Shown one piece after another: positions 1,484 to 22,507 of a DNA stretch of 64,000 nucleotides (position 1 is its first letter; each line of letters opens with the position of its first letter). Source of the stretch: Escherichia coli. Lineage in GTDB: Bacteria > Pseudomonadota > Gammaproteobacteria > Enterobacterales > Enterobacteriaceae. The stretch lies in NCBI RefSeq assembly GCF_051903065.1, contig NZ_CP178438.1; one strand, written 5' to 3'. The position numbers and the translations under genes were made by a program. The notes under the pieces are model-generated. The model had not been told where the DNA came from and ran no database searches. It worked only from the letters and a program-made list of their open reading frames with translations.

Positions 1484-3019
1484 TTAGTGTTTCTTGTCAT
1501 TCATCACAATATAGTGTGGTGAACGTGCACGCGGGTGCAGGAAGAAGTGACCTTTTGGTGCGTTCTGACTGTTGATTGGCTCCAGAGTGACGCCGGTATT
1601 CGCTTTGCCTTTACGATCATGAACAGCATAGAGAATAAAGGGCAGGGCAAGTACCACCAGGAAACTAACGACCAGTAATTCAACATACATATCGGTAGAG
1701 TCACCCTGGATATTATCCGGCGGCAGGAAGGAAACAATAAACGCCATAATTGAAGTCAGCAGACCGACAATAGCCACGACCAGTTTCACCCCTTTACCAC
1801 CAGGGATATTAAATGTGCGTTTTAAGTCAGGATGTTTAAGAACCAACACAATGTAGCCAATAAACAGCATGAAATAAGCACACAGATAAATCACCACCGT
1901 CAGCGCCAGTGCGATCAGGAAGGACATGTTGTTACCGCCACCGGTATTGGTGAGGATGATCAACGCGATAGAAGTAATCACCAGCTGTGAAATGACCAGC
2001 GTTACCGGTACGCCATTTTTGTTCATTTTAGCGAATGCCGCTGGCAGCAGGTTTTTCTGCGCTGTGACATACATCCCGCGAGAAGGACCAACAATCCAGG
2101 AGGCGATTTCCGCCAGAACACCCAGCAACAGCAGTGCGGAGATCACGCGAACCGTCCACTCAATTTCCGGTGCCACATGGGACATCAGAACGGTAAAGGT
2201 TTGCATTACCCCTGCGGAGAGGTTGATTTCATTACCCGGAATGACCATCGCAATAGACAAACCACCAACAGAGCTTAAGCAGATTGCCGCCACCATCAGC
2301 AGTAACATAGCCAGTGGATAGTCGCGCCCTGGGTTGCTCATTTCATTGACGTGGGTTGCGGATGCTTCTACGCCCATATAACTCAAAATGAAGGCAACAA
2401 ATACTACCAGGGTGCCCACTTTAGAGAAGTCAGGGAAGAAGGTCTTCGAATCCATTTCGATAGCAACGGGGGCACCGGAGTGCAGATAAATAGCCGCTAA
2501 TGCGATCAAAATAAATGCAGGTAACAGGATACCGGCGAAGAAGCCAACTTTAGCAATGCGCGCCGTGTATTTCGTGCCACCAAACTGCGTTAATGCCAGC
2601 GCCCAAAGAATGATGAGTGCTGCAATAGTTTTGGTAATGGGGTCTTCATTCAGCGCTGGCCATTTCAGGATGTAGGAGAGTGCCCCTAACACGAAATAGA
2701 GCATCGGAATAAAACCAATGGCGATTTGCAGATAGCCAAATGAGATCGCTGCAAATCCCCATCTCGGCCCCAGAGTATTTGATACCCAGGCGAAGACACC
2801 ACCTTCTTCCCAGCCGTCGACGGTGGCCATTTCCGCAGCACAAAGTCCCACGGGAATAAACCATAAAATCCCGCCTAATAGCAGGAAGAAGACTAATGAA
2901 AAGCCCGATGTTGCGAAGGTAGGGTATTCATAAACAGCCATTACCATCGATGCCGTTATGGCAAAAAAGCCGAGTAATGTGAGCTGCTTAGCTTTACCTG
3001 TCTGTACTGATGTAGCCAT
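1484..3019 (-). CDS. gadC: Glutamate:GABA antiporter GadC
   Basis: 511-aa polytopic membrane ORF, recognised sequence; immediately downstream of gadB. Confidence 0.95.
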
Positions 3020-3174: not shown

Positions 3175-4575
3175 TCAGGTATGTTTAAAGCTGTTCTGTT
3201 GGGCAATACCCTGCAGTTTCGGGTGATCACTGAGATATTTCAGGGAGGCTTTGTAGTCTTCCAGCAACAGTTCAGCAAAGTCCATTTCGAAGCCGCGACG
3301 ACACATAATGCGCATCACCACGATGTCGGTGGCTTCACCGCCGAGAGTGAAGGCCGGAACCTGCCAGCCGCGCAGACGCAGACGTTCAGAGAGGTCGTAC
3401 AGGGTGTATCCCGGATCTTCACCATCTTTGAGTTTGAAGCAAACCGCCGGAATGCCTTCGTCCGGGCGACCGGTACAGATGAACTCATACGGCCCCAGTT
3501 TGGCGATTTCATCCGCCAGATAAGCGGCAACCTGGTAAGAGGCGTTCTGTACTTTGGTGTAGCCTTCACGACCGAGGCGCAGGAATTCATAGTACTGTGC
3601 AATTACCTGACCCGCCGGGCGGGAGAAGTTGATGGCGAAAGTACCAATCTGACCCCCCAGGTAGTCAACGTTGAACACCAGTTCCTGCGGCAGCGCTTCT
3701 TCATCACGCCAGATAACCCAGCCGCAGCCCAGCGGAGCCAGACCGAATTTATGGCCTGAAGCACTGATCGATTTCACACGCGGCAGGCGGAAGTCCCAGA
3801 CGATATCCGGGGCGACGAACGGTGCCAGGAAGCCACCGCTGGCGGCGTCGATGTGCATGTCGATGTCGATACCGGTGTCGGCCTGGAATTTATCCAGCGC
3901 ATCGTGCAGCGGTTGCGGGAACTCATAGTTACCGGTGTAGGTCACGCCGAAAGTCGGCACCACGCCGATGGTATTTTCGTCGCAGGCTTCAATCATGCGT
4001 TTCGGATCCATAAACAACTGACCGGGGCGCATAGGGATCTCACGCAGCTCCACATCCCAGTAGCGGGCGAATTTATGCCAGCAGATTTGCACCGGACCGC
4101 ACACCAGGTTTGGTTTATCCGTTGGTTTGCCTGCAGCTTCCATACGCTTGCGCCAACGCCATTTCATCGCCATCCCGCCGAGCATACAGGCCTCGGAAGA
4201 ACCAATGGTGTTGGTGCCAACGGCCTGACCATTTTTCGGCGCAGGCGCATGCCACAGATCGGCAACCATATTTACGCAACGCAGGTCGATGGCTGCGGAT
4301 TGCGGATATTCTTCTTTGTCGATCCAGTTTTTGTTAATGGATAAATCCATCAACTTGTGGACATTTTCGTCGTCCCAGGTCTGGCAGAAAGTGGCCAGGT
4401 TCTGACGAGCGTTGCCATCAAGATATAATTCGTCATTGATAATCTGAAATGCGACATCGTCGCGCATTTCGTGCAGCGGAAAACGTTTTGATTCTGCGAT
4501 AGTGGAAATAGACTTCGCACCAAAACGTGAATCGAGTAGTTCCGACCTTAAATCCGTTACTTGCTTCTTATCCAT
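3175..4575 (-). CDS. gadB: Glutamate decarboxylase beta (PLP-dependent)
   Basis: ORF runs to 4644 but the protein matches GadB from the internal [15 protein letters not shown] start (466 aa); SGHKFG PLP-lysine motif present. Confidence 0.95.
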
Positions 4576-4654
4576 TTTAAACTCCTTAAAATGATTGGAT
4601 CGCATTAAAAAAGTAGGATTTATCGATAAAGTAAGCAAGTGCAAAGGACTCGTG

Positions 4655-4674
4655 TTTAAATAACAAAATCCTAA
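4655..4674 (-). promoter_or_regulatory. GAD box (GadE/GadX-RpoS binding element) in the gadB promoter
   Basis: Minus-strand sequence TTAGGATTTTGTTATTTAAA, about 80 bp upstream of the gadB start codon. Confidence 0.7.
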
Positions 4675-4907
4675 TGTTATTTATCGTGAGATATTGCGTG
4701 AATAATATTTTTTCATTGAAAAACAATATAGTAGGGAGCTCTTGGGTGGTGGTAAGGTGTTTTATGCTGTTATTTTTATGCGCTTTCTTTGCCTCCTGAA
4801 TTATCACGTAAAAATCAGACCTTAAAATATCACTATTAGTACTTGGTTATTATTTTGAACGCATTTATAAAATTATTACATAAAAATAGCGAATATTGCT
4901 AAAATCC

Positions 4908-4932
4908 CCGCCAACGATGTGTTGACGGGGCT
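4908..4932 (-). terminator. Candidate terminator downstream of pqqL
   Basis: Imperfect GC-rich inverted repeat ccccgccaac...gttgacgggg; on the minus strand it is followed by a U-rich stretch just past the pqqL stop. Confidence 0.4.
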
Positions 4933-4936
4933 GTTA

Positions 4937-7732
4937 TTATTTTGGCAATAATACTCCGGTATAGGTATTTACCGGATGAGAAAGATATTGTTTAACGGCA
5001 GTGTTAACATTCTCTACCGTCATTTGTTTCAACAATTGCTCCTGCTCAGCCCATGCTGCAGGATCGTCATATTGAATAAGACTATTTACAATAGTGTTCG
5101 CTAATTGTTGAACGCTACGCTGTTGGATATCGAGGCTGCGCTGAACGTTTTGCTGGTATTCGTTCAGTTCTTGCTCACTGATCCCCTTAGTCAAACGCTT
5201 AACCATCACTTCATTCGCTAACGTTAACAGTTCATCATGTCGTTCTGGTTGACAAGTAAAAGCCAGCAAATGACTGATATCTTTGGCCTGAGGATCAACC
5301 GAGAGGCGAGAAGAAACGCTGTATGCCCCAGATGCCTGTTCACGAATATTAACGCGTAGATCTTTTGCCAGTGCGACGTTAAAAGCATCGAGCGCCATAC
5401 GCGTCGCCAGATTAACAGGTGTCCGGGAATCATAACGCTTCCACTGTGAAACCTGTGCCACAGGTTCATTTTGTTCCTTTACAGTAACCGATGCGTTGTC
5501 CGTCGCGCGAGTTAATGGTTTACCTGCGGCTAATGGCGAATCAGAGTGTTTGATTGATCCTAAGTAACGCGTAATTAACGCCACGAGTTTGTCTTCTGCG
5601 ACATTACCGACAATGACAAACGTGATATCCGCTGGAGATGAAAACAACTGGCGATCGGCAGCCAGCGCATCTGCGGCAGTAAACTGTGCAATCTGATTTT
5701 CTTGCAGTAATTTCGTGCGGTCATCAGCATAGCGCGTCTCATACATCTGCTGGGCGAATTTCTCCGCTGGACGCTGGTCGAGCGTTTTCAACGCCTGAAT
5801 TTGAGCATTTTGTAGCGATGCCCAAATATTGTCGTTAATCGTGCTGTGGGTGATTCGCTGGTTAATCAACTGAAAACCAGGTTCAGGGTTATTAGTCCGC
5901 GCGCTAACGGAGAGCAACGTATTCATGCCACTGACTTTACTGCTCATGGTTACCGAGTTTTCCGCACTCCAGCGTTTCAGGCTGGAAGAGGAGAGTTCGC
6001 CAACGCCGCTTCCGCTAACTGCTTTATTTGCCAGCGCGATAAGTGATTTTTGCTGCGCAGGGAAACTTAAATCGCCTTTATTCGATACGGCAATAATTTG
6101 TAGCTTTTGCTCTTCACCCGCGGATTTTGCCAGAATAACCCTGGCACCATTGGAAAGTGTTAATGATGTCAGATTCTCAGCCAGCGTTTCTTTGCTGCTA
6201 ATTTCCGCCTGTGGGTCAGCGTCTACTGTTAACGATAAATTTCTGCCTGGGAAGATGTAAGCCGCCAGCTTTTTGTTGGCGTACTCTTTTTCCAGCGCCA
6301 GGATAGCCGCAGGAGACAATGCTTTTTTGGCGGCAAGCTCATTGTTTACCATTTGCTCCCAAAATGCGTCCTGGTTCTTTCTTAACTGCTGCCATTTTTC
6401 CGCCAGACTTTGCACGGTAATTTGCTGCCACAGACGTTTCGAAAGTTGATATGTCTCTTCCGGCGACAAGAACGGCGTATTATTTAATGAGCTTGATGCC
6501 AGGCGACTGGTCAGCATACGTAAATCACGTTCAGCTTGCTGATCAACCGCATTTTTCAGCCAGGTGAGGCGGGTAGATTTGACATCATCGAGTTCTTCAG
6601 CAGAAAAACCATGCTGATCAATGGCTGTTAACTCTGCCATTAATGCATTCGCAGCATCCTGCATATTATCGTCTCGTGCATTTACACGGAAAAACAGCGA
6701 CTGATAATCGGGTGCAATTTTAACGCTGCGCGCAGTGCCGCCAGAAATAGTCTTCAACTCGCCCGACTGTATGCGTTCCTGCAGACGTTGATTGAACAGC
6801 TGAACTAACATGCTCCATTCAGCTTGTTCGATAAAGCTTTGCTCATCGTTCACTTGTACCATTGGCAGGCGATAATAGAGTGCGATGCCGTTCACCCGGT
6901 TTTCTTTATCATTAATGATATTAAAGCGCAGGTGATTTTCGGCTTTTGTCGGCCAGACGCGATTTTCAGCTGCTTTGTTAGCTGGAAGCTTACTTAAATT
7001 ATCCTTTATCAGCGCCAGCGCTTCTTTACTGTCGATATCGCCAACCACGATAAAGGTCATATTATTTGGTTGATACCAGCGTTGATAAAATTGGCGCAAT
7101 TGTGCCGGTGTGACCGTGGCGACAGTATCCATCAGGCCGATAGGTTCACGGTCTAAATTACGGGTATTAGCCAGCAGGAAAGGGCGGCGCGCCTGAGAGG
7201 TGCGCCATTTCGCATCCTGATGGGCACGCCATTCCTCAGTAATTACGCCGCGTTCAGCGTCTACTTCGAGTTTTTCAAAGGTTGCGGCATTACTCCATTC
7301 ACTGAAGATTGCCATCACTTGTTGCAGATTTTGTTTCTGCGTAGTTGGCAAACTCACCTGATACACCGTTTCGTCATAGCTGGTATAGGCATTAACATCG
7401 CGACCAAAACGCAGGCCCATTGACTCAAATGTTTCGATGACTTTATTACCCGGCCATGTTTTTGTGCCGTTAAACATCATATGTTCTACAAAATGAGCCA
7501 CGCCGCGCTCATTGTCTTCTTCCTGCAATGAACCGGTATGAATTTGCAGCCATAAATTTACCTGATCCTTTGGTTGAGCATGCGGATAAATCATATATCG
7601 CAAGCCATTGTCCAGTTGTCCGGTAATTAACTTTTCATCCTGCGGTAAGGCGGCGGCAATCAGCCGCCCGGGGAGCAACAGAGTTGCCACTAACGTCAGT
7701 AAGAAACAGAGGTTTCTCATAATTATCTCCAT
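4937..7732 (-). CDS. pqqL: M16-family zinc metallopeptidase PqqL
   Basis: 931-aa ORF with signal peptide and inverted zincin motif HFVEH. Confidence 0.9.
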   Translation of the reverse strand: MEIIMRNLCFLLTLVATLLLPGRLIAAALPQDEKLITGQLDNGLRYMIYPHAQPKDQVNLWLQIHTGSLQEEDNERGVAHFVEHMMFNGTKTWPGNKVIETFESMGLRFGRDVNAYTSYDETVYQVSLPTTQKQNLQQVMAIFSEWSNAATFEKLEVDAERGVITEEWRAHQDAKWRTSQARRPFLLANTRNLDREPIGLMDTVATVTPAQLRQFYQRWYQPNNMTFIVVGDIDSKEALALIKDNLSKLPANKAAENRVWPTKAENHLRFNIINDKENRVNGIALYYRLPMVQVNDEQSFIEQAEWSMLVQLFNQRLQERIQSGELKTISGGTARSVKIAPDYQSLFFRVNARDDNMQDAANALMAELTAIDQHGFSAEELDDVKSTRLTWLKNAVDQQAERDLRMLTSRLASSSLNNTPFLSPEETYQLSKRLWQQITVQSLAEKWQQLRKNQDAFWEQMVNNELAAKKALSPAAILALEKEYANKKLAAYIFPGRNLSLTVDADPQAEISSKETLAENLTSLTLSNGARVILAKSAGEEQKLQIIAVSNKGDLSFPAQQKSLIALANKAVSGSGVGELSSSSLKRWSAENSVTMSSKVSGMNTLLSVSARTNNPEPGFQLINQRITHSTINDNIWASLQNAQIQALKTLDQRPAEKFAQQMYETRYADDRTKLLQENQIAQFTAADALAADRQLFSSPADITFVIVGNVAEDKLVALITRYLGSIKHSDSPLAAGKPLTRATDNASVTVKEQNEPVAQVSQWKRYDSRTPVNLATRMALDAFNVALAKDLRVNIREQASGAYSVSSRLSVDPQAKDISHLLAFTCQPERHDELLTLANEVMVKRLTKGISEQELNEYQQNVQRSLDIQQRSVQQLANTIVNSLIQYDDPAAWAEQEQLLKQMTVENVNTAVKQYLSHPVNTYTGVLLPK

Positions 7733-12134: not shown

Positions 12135-12740
12135 CTAAGACTGGAGCAAAGAGGGCGTGTTATTAATTATTCTCCATTTGTTTTGCAACTTCTGGAATAA
12201 TTCAGGCAAGAAAGTTTCTGTTAGCGGAATACCATCCTGAGCATCAGTATTGGAATAGACACCAAAGCGTGCGGGCGCTCGACCGGTCATTATTGCGGCG
12301 CGGGAGGGGCCGGAAACACCGTGTGCCACATAGCCGTTAGTAAAACGTACGCCTTCATCCATTAATGAAAGGAGCGTCGGCGTTGATTTTTGTGCAGCTT
12401 CAATGGCTTTATCTATCCCTATTTTGTAGGTATCGACAACTTCACGATTTTCCATTGTTTTTGGGTCAAAAGATCCCTTATCAAAAGGAAGTTGTCCATA
12501 ACCAAGATCATCCATGGTTAGTACGATAATATTTGGCTTTCCTTTGGTACTGTATTCAGTCGGCGTAAAGTCTGAGAAAGCAACGTTTGTTTTGGTTGCT
12601 TTCAGCTTTACATCATCTGCCGCATGAGCAGCAAATGCAGCCATACCAGATGCCAGTATCAAAGATATCGAGGTACTTACGACACTTTTCTTTAATGCAG
12701 ACTTCATAAATGTTCCTCTTCTTATTGTACTTAATTCCAA
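12135..12740 (-). pseudogene. ydeN: Sulfatase (ydeN-like) N-terminal fragment, truncated after about 180 codons
   Basis: 201-aa ORF with signal peptide and sulfatase N-terminal core (IIVLTMDDLGYGQL); C-terminal tail diverges and stops. Full-length sulfatase is about 560 aa. Confidence 0.6.
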
Positions 12741-14554: not shown

Positions 14555-14609
14555 GGTGATGCTGCCAACTTACTGATTTAGTGTATGATGGTGTTTTTGA
14601 GGTGCTCCA

Positions 14610-14885
14610 GTGGCTTCTGTTTCTATCAGCTGTCCCTCCTGTTCAGCTACTGACGGGGTGGTGCGTAACGGCAAAAGCACCGCCGGACATCAGCGCTATC
14701 TCTGCTCTCACTGCCGTAAAACATGGCAACTGCAGTTCACTTACACCGCTTCTCAACCCGGTACGCACCAGAAAATCATTGATATGGCCATGAATGGCGT
14801 TGGATGCCGGGCAACAGCCCGCATTATGGGCGTTGGCCTCAACACGATTTTACGTCACTTAAAAAACTCAGGCCGCAGTCGGTAA
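14610..14885 (+). CDS. insA: IS1 InsA
   Basis: 91-aa [26 protein letters not shown]..., zinc-finger CxxC...CxxC. Confidence 0.95.
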
Positions 14886-15307
14886 CCTCGCGCATACAGC
14901 CGGGCAGTGACGTCATCGTCTGCGCGGAAATGGACGAACAGTGGGGCTATGTCGGGGCTAAATCGCGCCAGCGCTGGCTGTTTTACGCGTATGACAGGCT
15001 CCGGAAGACGGTTGTTGCGCACGTATTCGGTGAACGCACTATGGCGACGCTGGGGCGTCTTATGAGCCTGCTGTCACCCTTTGACGTGGTGATATGGATG
15101 ACGGATGGCTGGCCGCTGTATGAATCCCGCCTGAAGGGAAAGCTGCACGTAATCAGCAAGCGATATACGCAGCGAATTGAGCGGCATAACCTGAATCTGA
15201 GGCAGCACCTGGCACGGCTGGGACGGAAGTCGCTGTCGTTCTCAAAATCGGTGGAGCTGCATGACAAAGTCATCGGGCATTATCTGAACATAAAACACTA
15301 TCAATAA
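14804..15307 (+). CDS. insB: IS1 InsB (expressed as InsAB' by -1 frameshift)
   Basis: 167-aa ORF overlapping insA in the -1 frame. Confidence 0.9.
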
Positions 15308-15322
15308 GTTGGAGTCATTACC

Positions 15323-17447
15323 CCATGCGGCGTGAGCTGCGCTTACCGTCTGGCGTAAGCGCAATAAGATTAACTCTTTCGCCGTTTTTTACACGGCAAA
15401 TTTTAGCTTGTTTAGCACTCATAAAGACCACATCTCGTTGACCGAATACCCCTCGATAGCGATCATCCATACCATAAATCGTCGTGTTGTACTGATCGTG
15501 GCTGCGTACTGTCGCCATGACCAGCTTACTGTTAAACGCTGAAGAGGGATCTTCTAACAGCCCTTTGCTGGTAATGAAATTAGCCTTACCTGACGGCGTC
15601 ATCCAGCGCCTTTCAGCAGCTGCATTTATCAGGTGAAAACCACCGGGATGACGGATGCGCTGGTTATAGTCGGCGAACTCTGGCAGCACAGCTTCAATGT
15701 CGTTGCGAATGCGATCATAATCTTCCACCAGATACTCCCAGGCTACCACGCTCTGGGGTAGTGCTGCCTGTGCGATTCCCGCGACCACTGCACACTCTGA
15801 TTTCAGCATTACACCGGCGGGTTTTAACACGCCACGCGAGGCATGAATCATCGACATTGAATCCTCAACGGTTACCGCCTGCGCACCGCTTTTTTGCATG
15901 TCAATCTCGCTACGTCCCAGAACCGGCAGAATATAGCTATGCCGTGCGGTCAGCAGATGAGAGCGGTTAAGCTTAGTGGCTACGTGTACCGCCAGATCTA
16001 ATTGCGTTAACGGTACAGCGCTCGCTTCCCGATCTGGCATTGCCAGTGCAAAGTTGCCCCCCATGCAGATCAATGCTCGAGCCTGCCCTGTACATATTGC
16101 TTGCATGCTGGCAATTGCAGCATGTCCAGGTGCTTGAGGTGGTGTGAAGCCATAGCGCTCACCCAGGCGAGCCAGAAACTCTGCAGACGGTTTCTCGGTG
16201 ATACCGACGGTTCGGTCGCCCTGTACATTAGAGTGGCCACGTAGTGGGCAGATACCCGCACCAGGCTTGCCAATGTTACCTTTCATCAACAGCAGATTGA
16301 CCAGTTGCTGTACATTCTGGGTACCATGTTCGTGCTGAGTGATCCCCATTCCGTAACAGATAATGGTTCGTTCGGCAGCGGCATATGCATCAGCCAGTTC
16401 GGCGATTTGTGTCTGACTTAGTCCAGAAATACGTTCGATATCTTTCCACTCGGAATTGAGCACGTCACGGCGTAGCTCGTCAAAGCCGACGGTATGCGTT
16501 TGAATAAATTCGTCATCCAGCAATGAGGGCCGACCTGCGGCGCTTGCAGCATCATCGCGCTCAATTAACAGGCGCATCATCCCCTTGAGCAACGCCATAT
16601 CACCACCAATGCGCACGTTATAGTAGGCACTGGCCAACTGAGTCTCAGAGTTCGTCAGCATTTCAAACGGGTTTTGCGGTGCGGTAAATCGCTCCAGGCC
16701 ACGTTCCTGTAGAGGATTGATGGCGATCATTTTCGCTCCCCGTTTCACTAAAGCGCGCAACGAAGTCAGCATGCGAGGGTGGTTTGTACCAGGGTTATGC
16801 CCAATGCAAATGACTAAATCGCACTTCTCAAAGTCTTCCAGCAACACGGTCCCTTTACCTACACCGATACTCGCTGCCAAACCCACGCTTGTCGGTTCAT
16901 GGCACATGTTGGAGCAGTCGGGAAAGTTATTGCTCCCGTATTCACGGGCAAAAAGCTGATAAAGAAAGGCAGCCTCATTGGAAGTGCGGCCCGAAGTATA
17001 GAATTCAACCTGATTGGGATCACTATAGCTTTGAAGGCGTGCGCCAATTTCATCGAAAGCTTGTTGCCAGCTTAATGGCTTGTAACAGTCGCTGACGGCA
17101 TCATATTTCAAAGGCTGAGTGAGTCGCCCCGCAGCCTCAAGCTCGTGGTCTCCCCAGGTAAGTAATGATTGAACCGTATTCTCAGCAAAGAAAGAGGCGT
17201 TTACCTGCTTATCCGTGACTTCCCAGGCGATTGCTTTTGCGCCGTTTTCACAAATGTCGAATGACGCACTGTGCTTAGGATCTGGCCATGCACAACCCGG
17301 ACAGTCAAAGCCCTCTGGCTTATTCATGTCAAACATGGCAATAACATCCTGGCGTATATCCATCTGCTTACGTACTGCATTCGCTACGGATTTAACAGCA
17401 CCCCAACCACCGGCAGCTCCCTGGTAGGATTCAATTTTTTTCTTCAT
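15323..17447 (-). pseudogene. ydeP: ydeP (molybdopterin oxidoreductase, acid resistance) 5' part, truncated by IS1
   Basis: ORF 15318-17447 encodes the first 708 residues of YdeP and then terminates on a stop codon supplied by the IS1 end. Confidence 0.85.
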
Positions 17448-17690
17448 CTACTTATCCTGTGTGGAAATGAATTATTAGGATTTGTAATAGCGATGATGCA
17501 CAGTACATACAAAGGGATTATCGCCAACATGGATATATAAGAGTAGGGGACTACTCTCTTTCTATTTTTAATCTATTATCGTTAAACAATAGATTAAATA
17601 CGATAAGGTAAGCATCATCTCTCATAGTGTTTAAATTAACATATTTTTTAATATAAAAAATAAGACTCTGGCTTCAATTGTGCGCGGATT

Positions 17691-19814: not shown

Positions 19815-22466
19815 TTAGCGACAGATTGCTGTCTGCTGGTTCAGTAAGGTTCCAGGAGAGACTTCCGGAAGCTTGTACTCGACAATACAGTTTGAGTTTT
19901 TATCATTGCCCCATGAAACCTGTAATTTCCCTGACTGTGGAAGTCCAGTCAGATAAACCTGACCGTTTTCTGCGACAATGCTGCCATTTTTATTCTCTCC
20001 GTGTGTGACAATTGCACCGAATGGAACGCTCTTATTACCGTACTTCAACGTCATTAATACTTTTCCGCCGATTTGTGCATTAAATGTTGCTCTGGCAATA
20101 GCACCGTGAGTTGGGATGACAGTGACCACGGTTTCATCCAGTTCAACATTATCTGCAAGAGAATTCGCGTTAAGAGCGACACGATTTTCTCTATATTCTG
20201 TCGCAAATGGTAATATGGCATAGCCACGCCAGTCGGTATGAATTCCGGTCTGGTTCTCTATTTTGACATTATCAGCGCCAGGAGCCTTAACCAGAACCAT
20301 TGTGTCGCCCAGCGGCTGTCCAAAGGTGATGCCATCAGCATGAGCAATAATCCCACCACTCATTCCGTAATAAATCTGGCTGCTGTCACCACTCCGACTG
20401 TAACCGACATTAGTATTACCGTAAGCTCCACGATAATTAAGAGAACTGTAACCACTGGTGCCAGACGATGTATTACCTCCGTGGGTGTTACCGACCTGAA
20501 CGCTATAATTCAGGTTATTATCCGGCAGCAGAGTGCCATAAACCCCCGATAGATTGGTCATGCCGCCTTTCAAATCGTTTGACATACTGTAACTGGCGTT
20601 TGAATTACGAAATGCCGACTGACTGTCTGTACGCATCCAATGACTGAAGGGAACATTAAGCGTAAAAGCGAGTAAATGATCCCGATCGTTTTGCCATATA
20701 TTATTGGAATAGCTGTAATTCAGCGAAGTCGTAATATCACCAAACGGCACATTTAATCCAAATGATATTTGCTGGTCGCTGCGTGACGTGTTCCAGTAAC
20801 TTTGGCGACTGGCACTGAAAAATGTCGTACCGTAATTTCCAAGCTGCTGAGAGATGCTTATTTGTTCCTGACCACGCTTACTGTAGAACAGATTAAAATA
20901 ATCAATAAATTGTGTCTGCTCATTGCTGTCTCCGGTAGGAGGCTTGACGGTGTAACCACTCATTCGACTGTAGGCACTGTCGGATAAGTTATAAAAACCT
21001 TGCGTAGAATAGCGATATCCTGCGACCTGGATATTGGTTCCTGTCTGGTAGAAGGATTTGCTGTAGACGGATTTAACCGATTGCCCGCTGTGACGGGTGC
21101 CATCTGCAAGTGTCGTATTGGCCTGCGTGATATCGAAAGAAAAGGCACCAAAAAGTCCTAAATCTTTACCAATACCAAGGTTGAAGGCCTGATAATCTTC
21201 TGCAATTTGCATTCCGCCATAAGGTGTCCAGTTTCCTTCCAGTCCATGCATCAAGCTACCTTGTATGAACCTGGGGGAGCTTTGCAGGTTATTTCCACTA
21301 CGATATTCCCCCATGGCAAGCGCATAACGCGTATATCCAGCACGTTGGAGAACCGGAACAGACGAATAAGGAACATATAATGTCTGAATACTGCCGTCTG
21401 CCTCTTTTATGGTTACTTGCAGATCACCACCATTGGCCGCAGAGTTGATATCATCAATAGTAAAAGGGCCGGGTGGAACAGTAGTCTGATAAACATCGTA
21501 TCCGTTCTGTTTTACACTCACTTGTGCGGTGCCACGGGCAATACCATGAATCACCGGAGCGAAACCATGTTGGCTATCGGGCAACATCGCTTCTGTTGAA
21601 TTTATTTTGAGGCCACGAAAGTTCACACTATCAAAAATATCGCCATCGGTATAACTATCACCTACCGTTAACCGTGAGCGTAAGGGAATAATGTCACGTT
21701 CAGCCGACGTATTGATATGCTGCCATTTATTGCTGTCAGATGAATTGCTACTCCCACTGTTATAACTCCACGTTGAGTTATCGCGCAGTCGCCAACTACC
21801 AATGTTGATGCCACTCTGTAAATTCAAATATGCATAGTTTGATTTTCCTGCATTATGGTTACTACGATTATTAATAGAATTACCATTAAAACTATAGTTT
21901 AGAAGCCCTGCATTTATTCCTTCTTCCCACAGATCAGGAGAAACATAGCCGCGAGCCATTCTGCCAACATAAATTTGCGGAACGGAGAGTGACAGATGTT
22001 GCTGACCAACATCAAACTCAGTTGATGCGTCGACCAAACGATCCTGAAGTGGTGTGCATGCGCTGTTGTCCGGCACATGTTTTTCTGCTGAATGTTCCTT
22101 ATTGTCTAATAACGCAGATTTTTTTATGCCAAGACTGACAAGAAGATCTGTACTCAGGCATGGGATGAGATCTGCATTATTATCATCTGCAATAAAAGTA
22201 ATATCCCGACTAGTCATAAATTCGTCGTTCAAATAAATGTCGACCCGATATGTACCAGGTGGTGCCTCGCGTCCCTTAGTAAAGGCGGATAAATCGACAG
22301 ATTCAGCAAGATCATTGCTTAAAAATCGTGGATTAAAATAATACTCTGCGTAAACGGGAAATACCGCAGTTGCTAAGCCAAGGGCAATCGTAAGCCGTGC
22401 AAAGCGAGGCAGTAGTAACACCTGATGCATACGATATGCCTTAAATGCGGCACGAAAGGCTGTCAT
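19815..22466 (-). CDS. ydeT: Fimbrial usher (FimD-like), full length
   Basis: 883-aa ORF with usher N-terminal, barrel and C-terminal domains; a pseudogene fragment in K-12 (memory) but a single intact ORF here. The true start may be the internal MHQVLLL. Confidence 0.8.
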   Translation of the reverse strand: MTAFRAAFKAYRMHQVLLLPRFARLTIALGLATAVFPVYAEYYFNPRFLSNDLAESVDLSAFTKGREAPPGTYRVDIYLNDEFMTSRDITFIADDNNADLIPCLSTDLLVSLGIKKSALLDNKEHSAEKHVPDNSACTPLQDRLVDASTEFDVGQQHLSLSVPQIYVGRMARGYVSPDLWEEGINAGLLNYSFNGNSINNRSNHNAGKSNYAYLNLQSGINIGSWRLRDNSTWSYNSGSSNSSDSNKWQHINTSAERDIIPLRSRLTVGDSYTDGDIFDSVNFRGLKINSTEAMLPDSQHGFAPVIHGIARGTAQVSVKQNGYDVYQTTVPPGPFTIDDINSAANGGDLQVTIKEADGSIQTLYVPYSSVPVLQRAGYTRYALAMGEYRSGNNLQSSPRFIQGSLMHGLEGNWTPYGGMQIAEDYQAFNLGIGKDLGLFGAFSFDITQANTTLADGTRHSGQSVKSVYSKSFYQTGTNIQVAGYRYSTQGFYNLSDSAYSRMSGYTVKPPTGDSNEQTQFIDYFNLFYSKRGQEQISISQQLGNYGTTFFSASRQSYWNTSRSDQQISFGLNVPFGDITTSLNYSYSNNIWQNDRDHLLAFTLNVPFSHWMRTDSQSAFRNSNASYSMSNDLKGGMTNLSGVYGTLLPDNNLNYSVQVGNTHGGNTSSGTSGYSSLNYRGAYGNTNVGYSRSGDSSQIYYGMSGGIIAHADGITFGQPLGDTMVLVKAPGADNVKIENQTGIHTDWRGYAILPFATEYRENRVALNANSLADNVELDETVVTVIPTHGAIARATFNAQIGGKVLMTLKYGNKSVPFGAIVTHGENKNGSIVAENGQVYLTGLPQSGKLQVSWGNDKNSNCIVEYKLPEVSPGTLLNQQTAICR

Positions 22467-22507
22467 TATTAATTCCGATTGAGTTTATTATTAATTAGGT
22501 CACTGGC

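Follow-up and report, generated by a model that had tools for sequence, protein, structure and literature searches.

A GAD box identical to that of K-12 in the gadBC promoter of an Escherichia coli strain, and its predicted assignment to GadE-RcsB

The GAD box of the E. coli K-12 gadBC promoter reportedly goes back to work by Castanie-Cornet and Foster in 2001, and a 42-bp GadX/GadW consensus is said to have been given by Tramonti et al. in 2008. In the published description, the box is a 20-bp consensus whose centre lies 63 bp before the transcription starts of gadA and gadBC, and gadC is co-transcribed with gadB (PMC2887963). At gadA it lies 16 bp upstream of the -35 element, and GadE together with RcsB leaves a footprint from -50 to -76 (PMC2887963). 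GadE alone neither protects nor shifts the gadA box; the GadE-RcsB heterodimer does (Castanie-Cornet et al., 2010; PMC2887963), with an apparent constant of ~10 nM, and earlier reports of binding by GadE alone were ascribed to contamination with RcsB (PMC2887963). Exchange of a conserved G for C in the left half of the gadA box (M1-type) abolished both binding and GadE-dependent activation, whereas GadE/RcsB binding was only slightly impaired by the change of TT to CC in the right half (PMC2887963). The same study placed an RcsB box just ahead of the -10 element, kept in gadB save for a C in place of G at its left end; binding of RcsB to this box was reported for gadA only (PMC2887963). The gadA biochemistry (footprint, EMSA, M1 and M2 mutations, and in vitro transcription) is extrapolated to gadB.

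A related arrangement is the "RcsAB box" of RcsA-RcsB, where RcsB likewise acts with a second LuxR/FixJ-type protein, again at an asymmetric site that precedes the -35 element. In its left half, the GAD box is similar to an RcsB half-site (PMC2887963); its right half is unlike the RcsAB box. The partner of RcsB at the GAD box is GadE, not RcsA, and the reported affinity is ~10-fold tighter than that of RcsA/RcsB (PMC2887963). The GadX/GadW site shares the promoter region with the GAD box and also activates gadBC, but it has another sequence, is recognized by regulators of the AraC/XylS family, and lies at -220..-201 rather than at -62.5.

We compared these systems with the gad locus in a window of E. 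coli DNA, that is, the whole stretch of 64,000 nucleotides under analysis. The site in the window is orthologous to the K-12 gadBC GAD box, with the same 20/20 sequence, the same distances to the -35 element, the transcription start site (TSS) and the ATG, and the same flanking genes, pqqL on one side and gadB-gadC on the other. The gadA promoter, at its paralogous locus within the acid fitness island, carries the identical 20-mer between unrelated flanks.

Sequence, position and gene context of the box

A direct read of the minus strand at 4655..4674 gave the 20-mer TTAGGATTTTGTTATTTAAA exactly, as the preliminary description had reported. A motif scan of both strands of the 64-kb window found this single match at up to 3 mismatches, whereas 100 dinucleotide-preserving shuffles yielded a mean of 0.01 matches at the same threshold, which indicates that the 20-mer is not a chance event. 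The preliminary description had also placed the element in the gadB promoter and had proposed alignment with the K-12 promoter as the check. We performed this alignment: the box matched the K-12 MG1655 gadB promoter at 20/20 positions, no base differed from the box through to the ATG, and the published position and the downstream gadB and gadC genes agreed, so that the placement holds. Its further statement that the element stands upstream of both gadA and gadBC was borne out by the identical 20-mer in both K-12 promoters (20/20 against each). It is also the same 20-mer as the characterised GadE site printed by Seo et al. (2015; PMC4918353). Since the box is identical at every position, both G residues of the left-half TTAGGA, including the M1 position, are present.

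The gene identities were supported by protein family scores (Table 1) and by the RefSeq annotation of matching strains, which agrees with both gadB and gadC; both genes are intact. The N-terminus MDKKQVTDL fits K-12 gadB and not gadA, and the first codons are those of K-12 gadB (ATGGATAAGAAGCAA) rather than of gadA (ATGGACCAGAAGCTG). The gene order digH-gadC-gadB-pqqL-yddB is that of K-12 MG1655. Together, the gene identities and their order identify the locus as the gadBC promoter region of the E. coli chromosome. Of the regulatory genes, gadE and rcsB are located outside the 64-kb window, and ydeO and safA, which belong to the EvgA-YdeO-GadE cascade, are inside it.

Table 1. Features of the gadBC locus in the window, with positions relative to the inferred gadB TSS where given.
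Feature	Window position	Strand	Details
gadC, glutamate/GABA antiporter	1484..3019	-	511 aa; TIGR00910, 1029.7 bits (cutoff 673.5)
gadB, glutamate decarboxylase B	3175..4575	-	466 aa; TIGR01788, 692.7 bits (cutoff 380.4)
Inferred gadB TSS (+1)	4602	-	27 nt upstream of ATG; leader from K-12 literature
-10 hexamer TACTTT (inferred)	4610..4615	-	17-bp spacer from -35; from TSS and -35 geometry
Putative RcsB (repressor) box CGATAAATCCTA	4614..4625	-	Abuts -10; approximate boundaries
-35 hexamer TTGCTT (inferred)	4633..4638	-	16 bp downstream of box; same in gadA and gadB promoters
Spacer CACGAGTCCTTTGCAC, GAD box to -35	4639..4654	-	16 bp; length conserved, sequence variable
GAD box TTAGGATTTTGTTATTTAAA	4655..4674	-	-72..-53; centre -62.5
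GadX/GadW motif match AGGTCTGATTTTTACGTGAT	4803..4822	-	-220..-201; 19/20 against ChIP-exo motif AKGKCTGWTWTTWWYMYVAK
pqqL ORF	4937..7732		931 aa; upstream of gadB

The box lies in the 361-bp pqqL-gadB intergenic region (4576..4936). The box itself is 80% A+T and its intergenic surroundings are AT-rich. A consensus promoter scan did not call the gadB promoter, its sole match being on the opposite strand, and the -35 and -10 elements were therefore taken from published spacing. The 5' end of the gadB leader, which sets +1, was taken from a 2024 study whose gadB RNA began at nt -27, counted from the translational start (PMC11210196). With this 27-nt leader the centre of the box falls at -62.5, equal to the value in the K-12 ChIP-exo table, and this centre together with the 16-bp gap to TTGCTT agrees with the published position of the GAD box; the span of -72..-53 likewise fits the reported -50 to -76 footprint. 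The promoter is weak, as is its putative -10 element, TACTTT. In an alignment of the gadA and gadB promoters, the window shows the gadB-type C directly before GATAAATCCTA in the putative RcsB box.

At the far end of the intergenic region, a GC-rich hairpin followed by a T-run (CCCCG-N15-CGGGG ATTTT, ~4906..4932, minus strand) begins 5 bases past the pqqL stop codon. This hairpin was identified by visual inspection and is absent from the output of a terminator scan; it is probably the pqqL terminator, which would shield the gadB promoter from read-through. An Rfam scan of the whole window gave no match in the pqqL-gadB intergenic region, and thus no sign that the GAD box is within a known RNA.

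Against K-12, neither the box nor the sequence downstream of it through the gadB ATG shows any difference. The intergenic region contains 12 differences, all upstream of the box and most of them in or near 4700..4790. In alignment columns counted from the first base past the pqqL stop, these differences occupy columns 91-252; column 274 is the first of the box.

Conservation of the box and variation around it

A 551-bp query around the box found a match in 5,425 of 5,426 complete E. coli genomes. In a mismatch-tolerant 30-mer search with the box and its 10 upstream bases, 5,395 of the 5,434 matching E. coli records were identical at 30/30 positions; a match was present in 5,425/5,426 genomes, at a median of 2 places per genome, which we read as the gadB and gadA copies. 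We then aligned seven strains chosen across the identity range of 93.5-100%. None of the variable columns fell in the box, whereas 31 fell in the 100 upstream and 3 in the 80 downstream positions. The first three bases of the 16-bp spacer vary among E. coli strains. The most variable intergenic part among strains was 4700..4790 (minus strand, ~-190 to -100), where up to 12 of 20 columns vary; on one side of it is the conserved GadX/GadW motif, on the other the invariant GAD box with the core promoter.

The exact 20-mer was then sought among 100,044 species-representative genomes. It occurred in eight Escherichia stretches from five genomes: two of E. coli and one of Escherichia sp. E1V33, each with two copies, and those of E. 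albertii and E. whittamii. Five of these stretches were aligned, and all lie upstream of a gad decarboxylase gene; the spacing of the box from such genes is the same in E. albertii, E. whittamii and Escherichia sp. E1V33. As the loci were retrieved by exact match, the box is invariant in this cross-species alignment by construction, and the context and the spacing alone are informative.

The exact 20-mer was also found in three unrelated MAG contigs. We attribute these occurrences to chance, as they are by our own estimate about the number expected for an AT-rich 20-mer in 298 Gb. Such matches, together with the 80% A+T of the box and its AT-rich surroundings, would fit a view in which the 20-mer is a chance AT-rich string devoid of a specific role, for example part of a tract bound by H-NS, and passages of PMC2887963 and PMC4918353 do cite repression of gad promoters by H-NS. 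We give this view next to no probability: the shuffles predict only 0.01 matches at up to 3 mismatches, the match is exact and correctly positioned beside gadB, and it is invariant while the adjacent AT-rich sequence varies.

Comparison of the two paralogous promoters bears on the origin of the identity. Between gadA and gadB the box is identical at 20/20 positions, as against 0/20 in the upstream flank and 2/16 in the 16-bp spacer; identity resumes at the -35 element, and 51 of the 64 bases from there to the ATG are shared. Since gadA and gadB are near-identical paralogues, this last stretch makes recombination between them plausible, and gene conversion, rather than selection on a binding site, could in principle have kept the box identical between the two genes and among strains. 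Conversion tracts are contiguous, however, whereas here the box stands as an island between two dissimilar stretches, a pattern that speaks for selection on the 20-mer rather than for simple gene conversion. The island pattern recurs in other Escherichia species, and mutation of a conserved G at gadA abolishes binding and activation (PMC2887963). Gene conversion as the source of the identity is thus extremely unlikely, and we favour selection on a binding site.

Other features of the window

The best match to the promoter query was strain ECNB21-M121, identical at 100% over the 551 bp, and across the tam-lsrG region the window is 99.96% identical to this strain. The two differ in their insertions and deletions: ECNB21-M121 lacks the ydeM-ydeN deletion and the ydeP::IS1 insertion described below, and it has an IS1 between yddA and ydeM that is missing from the window.

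Relative to K-12, the window carries a clean 2,347-bp deletion with its junction at 12189/12190, in which most of ydeM is lost along with the 3' two-thirds of ydeN, genes for a putative sulfatase and its maturase. No IS element is found at the junction, and a remnant ORF extends over 12135..12740 (minus strand). The junction is common to 2 of 5,426 complete E. coli genomes (23CRST027 and 23CRST031). A 768-bp IS1 at 14555..15322 lies in the 3' end of ydeP, which encodes an EvgA-regulated acid-resistance oxidoreductase, and has a direct repeat of ~9-10 bp (CCATGCGGCG) on each flank. The ydeP remnant (15318..17447, minus strand) encodes 709 aa, compared to 759 aa in K-12. None of the complete E. 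coli genomes searched contains the ydeP::IS1 junction as one contiguous match. The insertion could affect the glutamate-independent acid resistance of the strain.

A second IS1 copy (31958..32726) interrupts a large autotransporter gene of the yneO/ECSE_1600 family; the same interruption is present in ECNB21-M121, whose annotation lists the gene as a split pseudogene. Within the ydeQRST fimbrial cluster, ~3.3 kb (21041..24321) is absent from K-12. By the ECNB21-M121 annotation, this segment holds a full-length usher, a chaperone and a fimA-like major subunit, whereas the K-12 form is truncated. Between tam and lsrG (~41.6-43.3 kb), the same annotation indicates an IS200/IS605-type tnpA fragment and a gene for a TnpB/InsQ RNA-guided endonuclease. 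The sole Rfam match in the window is to the Hfq-binding sRNA STnc560, at full length (59792..60005, minus strand; 281.9 bits against a gathering score of 55), which we take to be the MgrR sRNA of E. coli.

Regulators at the gadBC promoter

The occupancy of the K-12 gadBC promoter was assessed from published ChIP-exo data. The GadE peak at gadBC (1570144..1570175) is centred at -62.5 and is listed as activating and causal (PMC4918353, Supplementary Table 1); it is a modest peak, with an S/N of 2.78, and the GadE peak at gadA is centred at -64 (PMC4918353). The peak coordinates are in an older K-12 numbering, and equating the transcription starts gave an offset of ~1,975-1,976 bp. By this coordinate arithmetic, the K-12 equivalent of the box in the window falls inside the GadE gadBC peak. 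In a gadE deletion, gadB mRNA changed by 2^-6.44 (~87-fold loss), compared to 2^-0.60 (~1.5-fold) in a gadX deletion (PMC4918353). Association of RpoS with the gadBC promoter was recorded in the same data (PMC4918353).

A scan of the window with the degenerate GadE ChIP-exo motif TTARGAWWWWAAATA did not recover the canonical box when up to 1 mismatch was allowed. Its only match was an unrelated site at 17648..17662; since 0.29 matches were expected from shuffles, that match is probably due to chance. As a query for the 20-bp box, this 15-mer performs poorly.

The motif derived from GadX/GadW ChIP-exo behaved differently. At up to 2 mismatches, AKGKCTGWTWTTWWYMYVAK had 3 matches in the window against 0.32 expected; the GAD box was not among them, and the match upstream of it in the gadB promoter (Table 1) contained 1 mismatch. 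In the seven divergent strains, 19 of the 20 columns of this upstream match are invariant. The GadX peaks at K-12 gadBC are at +66, -184 and -225, with a further upstream peak listed (PMC4918353), and the K-12 equivalent of the upstream match straddles the peaks P6 and P7 (-184 and -225). Judged from the motif and its position, it is a putative activator site in its own right, separate from and upstream of the GAD box.

These observations bear on the possibility that the 20-mer also, or instead, serves as an operator for the AraC-type regulators GadX and GadW, in competition with GadE. A passage of PMC6128205 cites in vitro papers of 2001-2002 for GadX/GadW competition at the box, and a shift by GadX is reported for gadB promoter fragments that run from -173 to +77 and thus include the box and exclude the -220..-201 motif (PMC3050690). 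In K-12, however, ChIP-exo places a GadE peak and no GadX peak at -62.5 (PMC4918353). The GadX/GadW motif is unlike the box and is matched at 19/20 positions farther upstream, the 2010 model draws the GadXW box and the GAD box as separate elements (PMC2887963), and loss of gadX cuts gadB expression merely ~1.5-fold (PMC4918353). On balance, we consider a GadX/GadW operator at the 20-mer unlikely. The preliminary description had called the element bound by GadE/GadX. The GadE half of this label stands, in the form of the GadE-RcsB heterodimer described at K-12 gadA, while the GadX half probably does not, as the GadX peaks in K-12 ChIP-exo lie elsewhere.

The box is nearly invariant, also at the right-half positions at which TT-to-CC had little effect on binding at gadA. 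This near-total invariance may reflect constraints other than those of the heterodimer, for example a second ligand that overlaps the 20-mer, through GadX/GadW competition or H-NS nucleation; separately, the cluster of 12 upstream substitutions relative to K-12, the ydeP::IS1 insertion and the ydeM-ydeN deletion might mark a re-tuned acid response. Both are speculations, and we regard them as very unlikely.

Our preferred reading is that the element at 4655..4674 is the GAD box of the gadBC promoter, predicted to be a class-I-type upstream activator site for GadE-RcsB, and on the identity of sequence and geometry with K-12 we hold this to be nearly certain. The sequence identity, position, gene context and conservation of the box were observed in the present analysis, and the assignment of the regulator draws on the literature, namely on heterodimer binding at K-12 gadA and on in vivo GadE occupancy and the effect of the gadE deletion at K-12 gadBC. 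We infer that the identical site functions in this strain as it does in K-12. In the proposed mechanism, acid or stationary phase would lead to accumulation of the LuxR-family activator GadE, which would pair with the response regulator RcsB. The GadE-RcsB heterodimer is expected to bind the asymmetric 20-bp site at -62.5, 16 bp upstream of the -35 element, and, once bound, to stimulate RNA polymerase at the weak promoter, leading to transcription of gadB and gadC. GadB and GadC would then consume and export protons' worth of acid. At high levels, RcsB may instead repress via the box adjoining the -10 element, and GadX and GadW would act from farther upstream.

The box is an unaltered copy of a textbook cis-element that is already known, and it brings no new biology. 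Its value is that of a correct annotation for the gadBC promoter of this strain, in which the 20-mer would be labelled as a GadE-RcsB site and GadX/GadW would be assigned to the separate upstream site.
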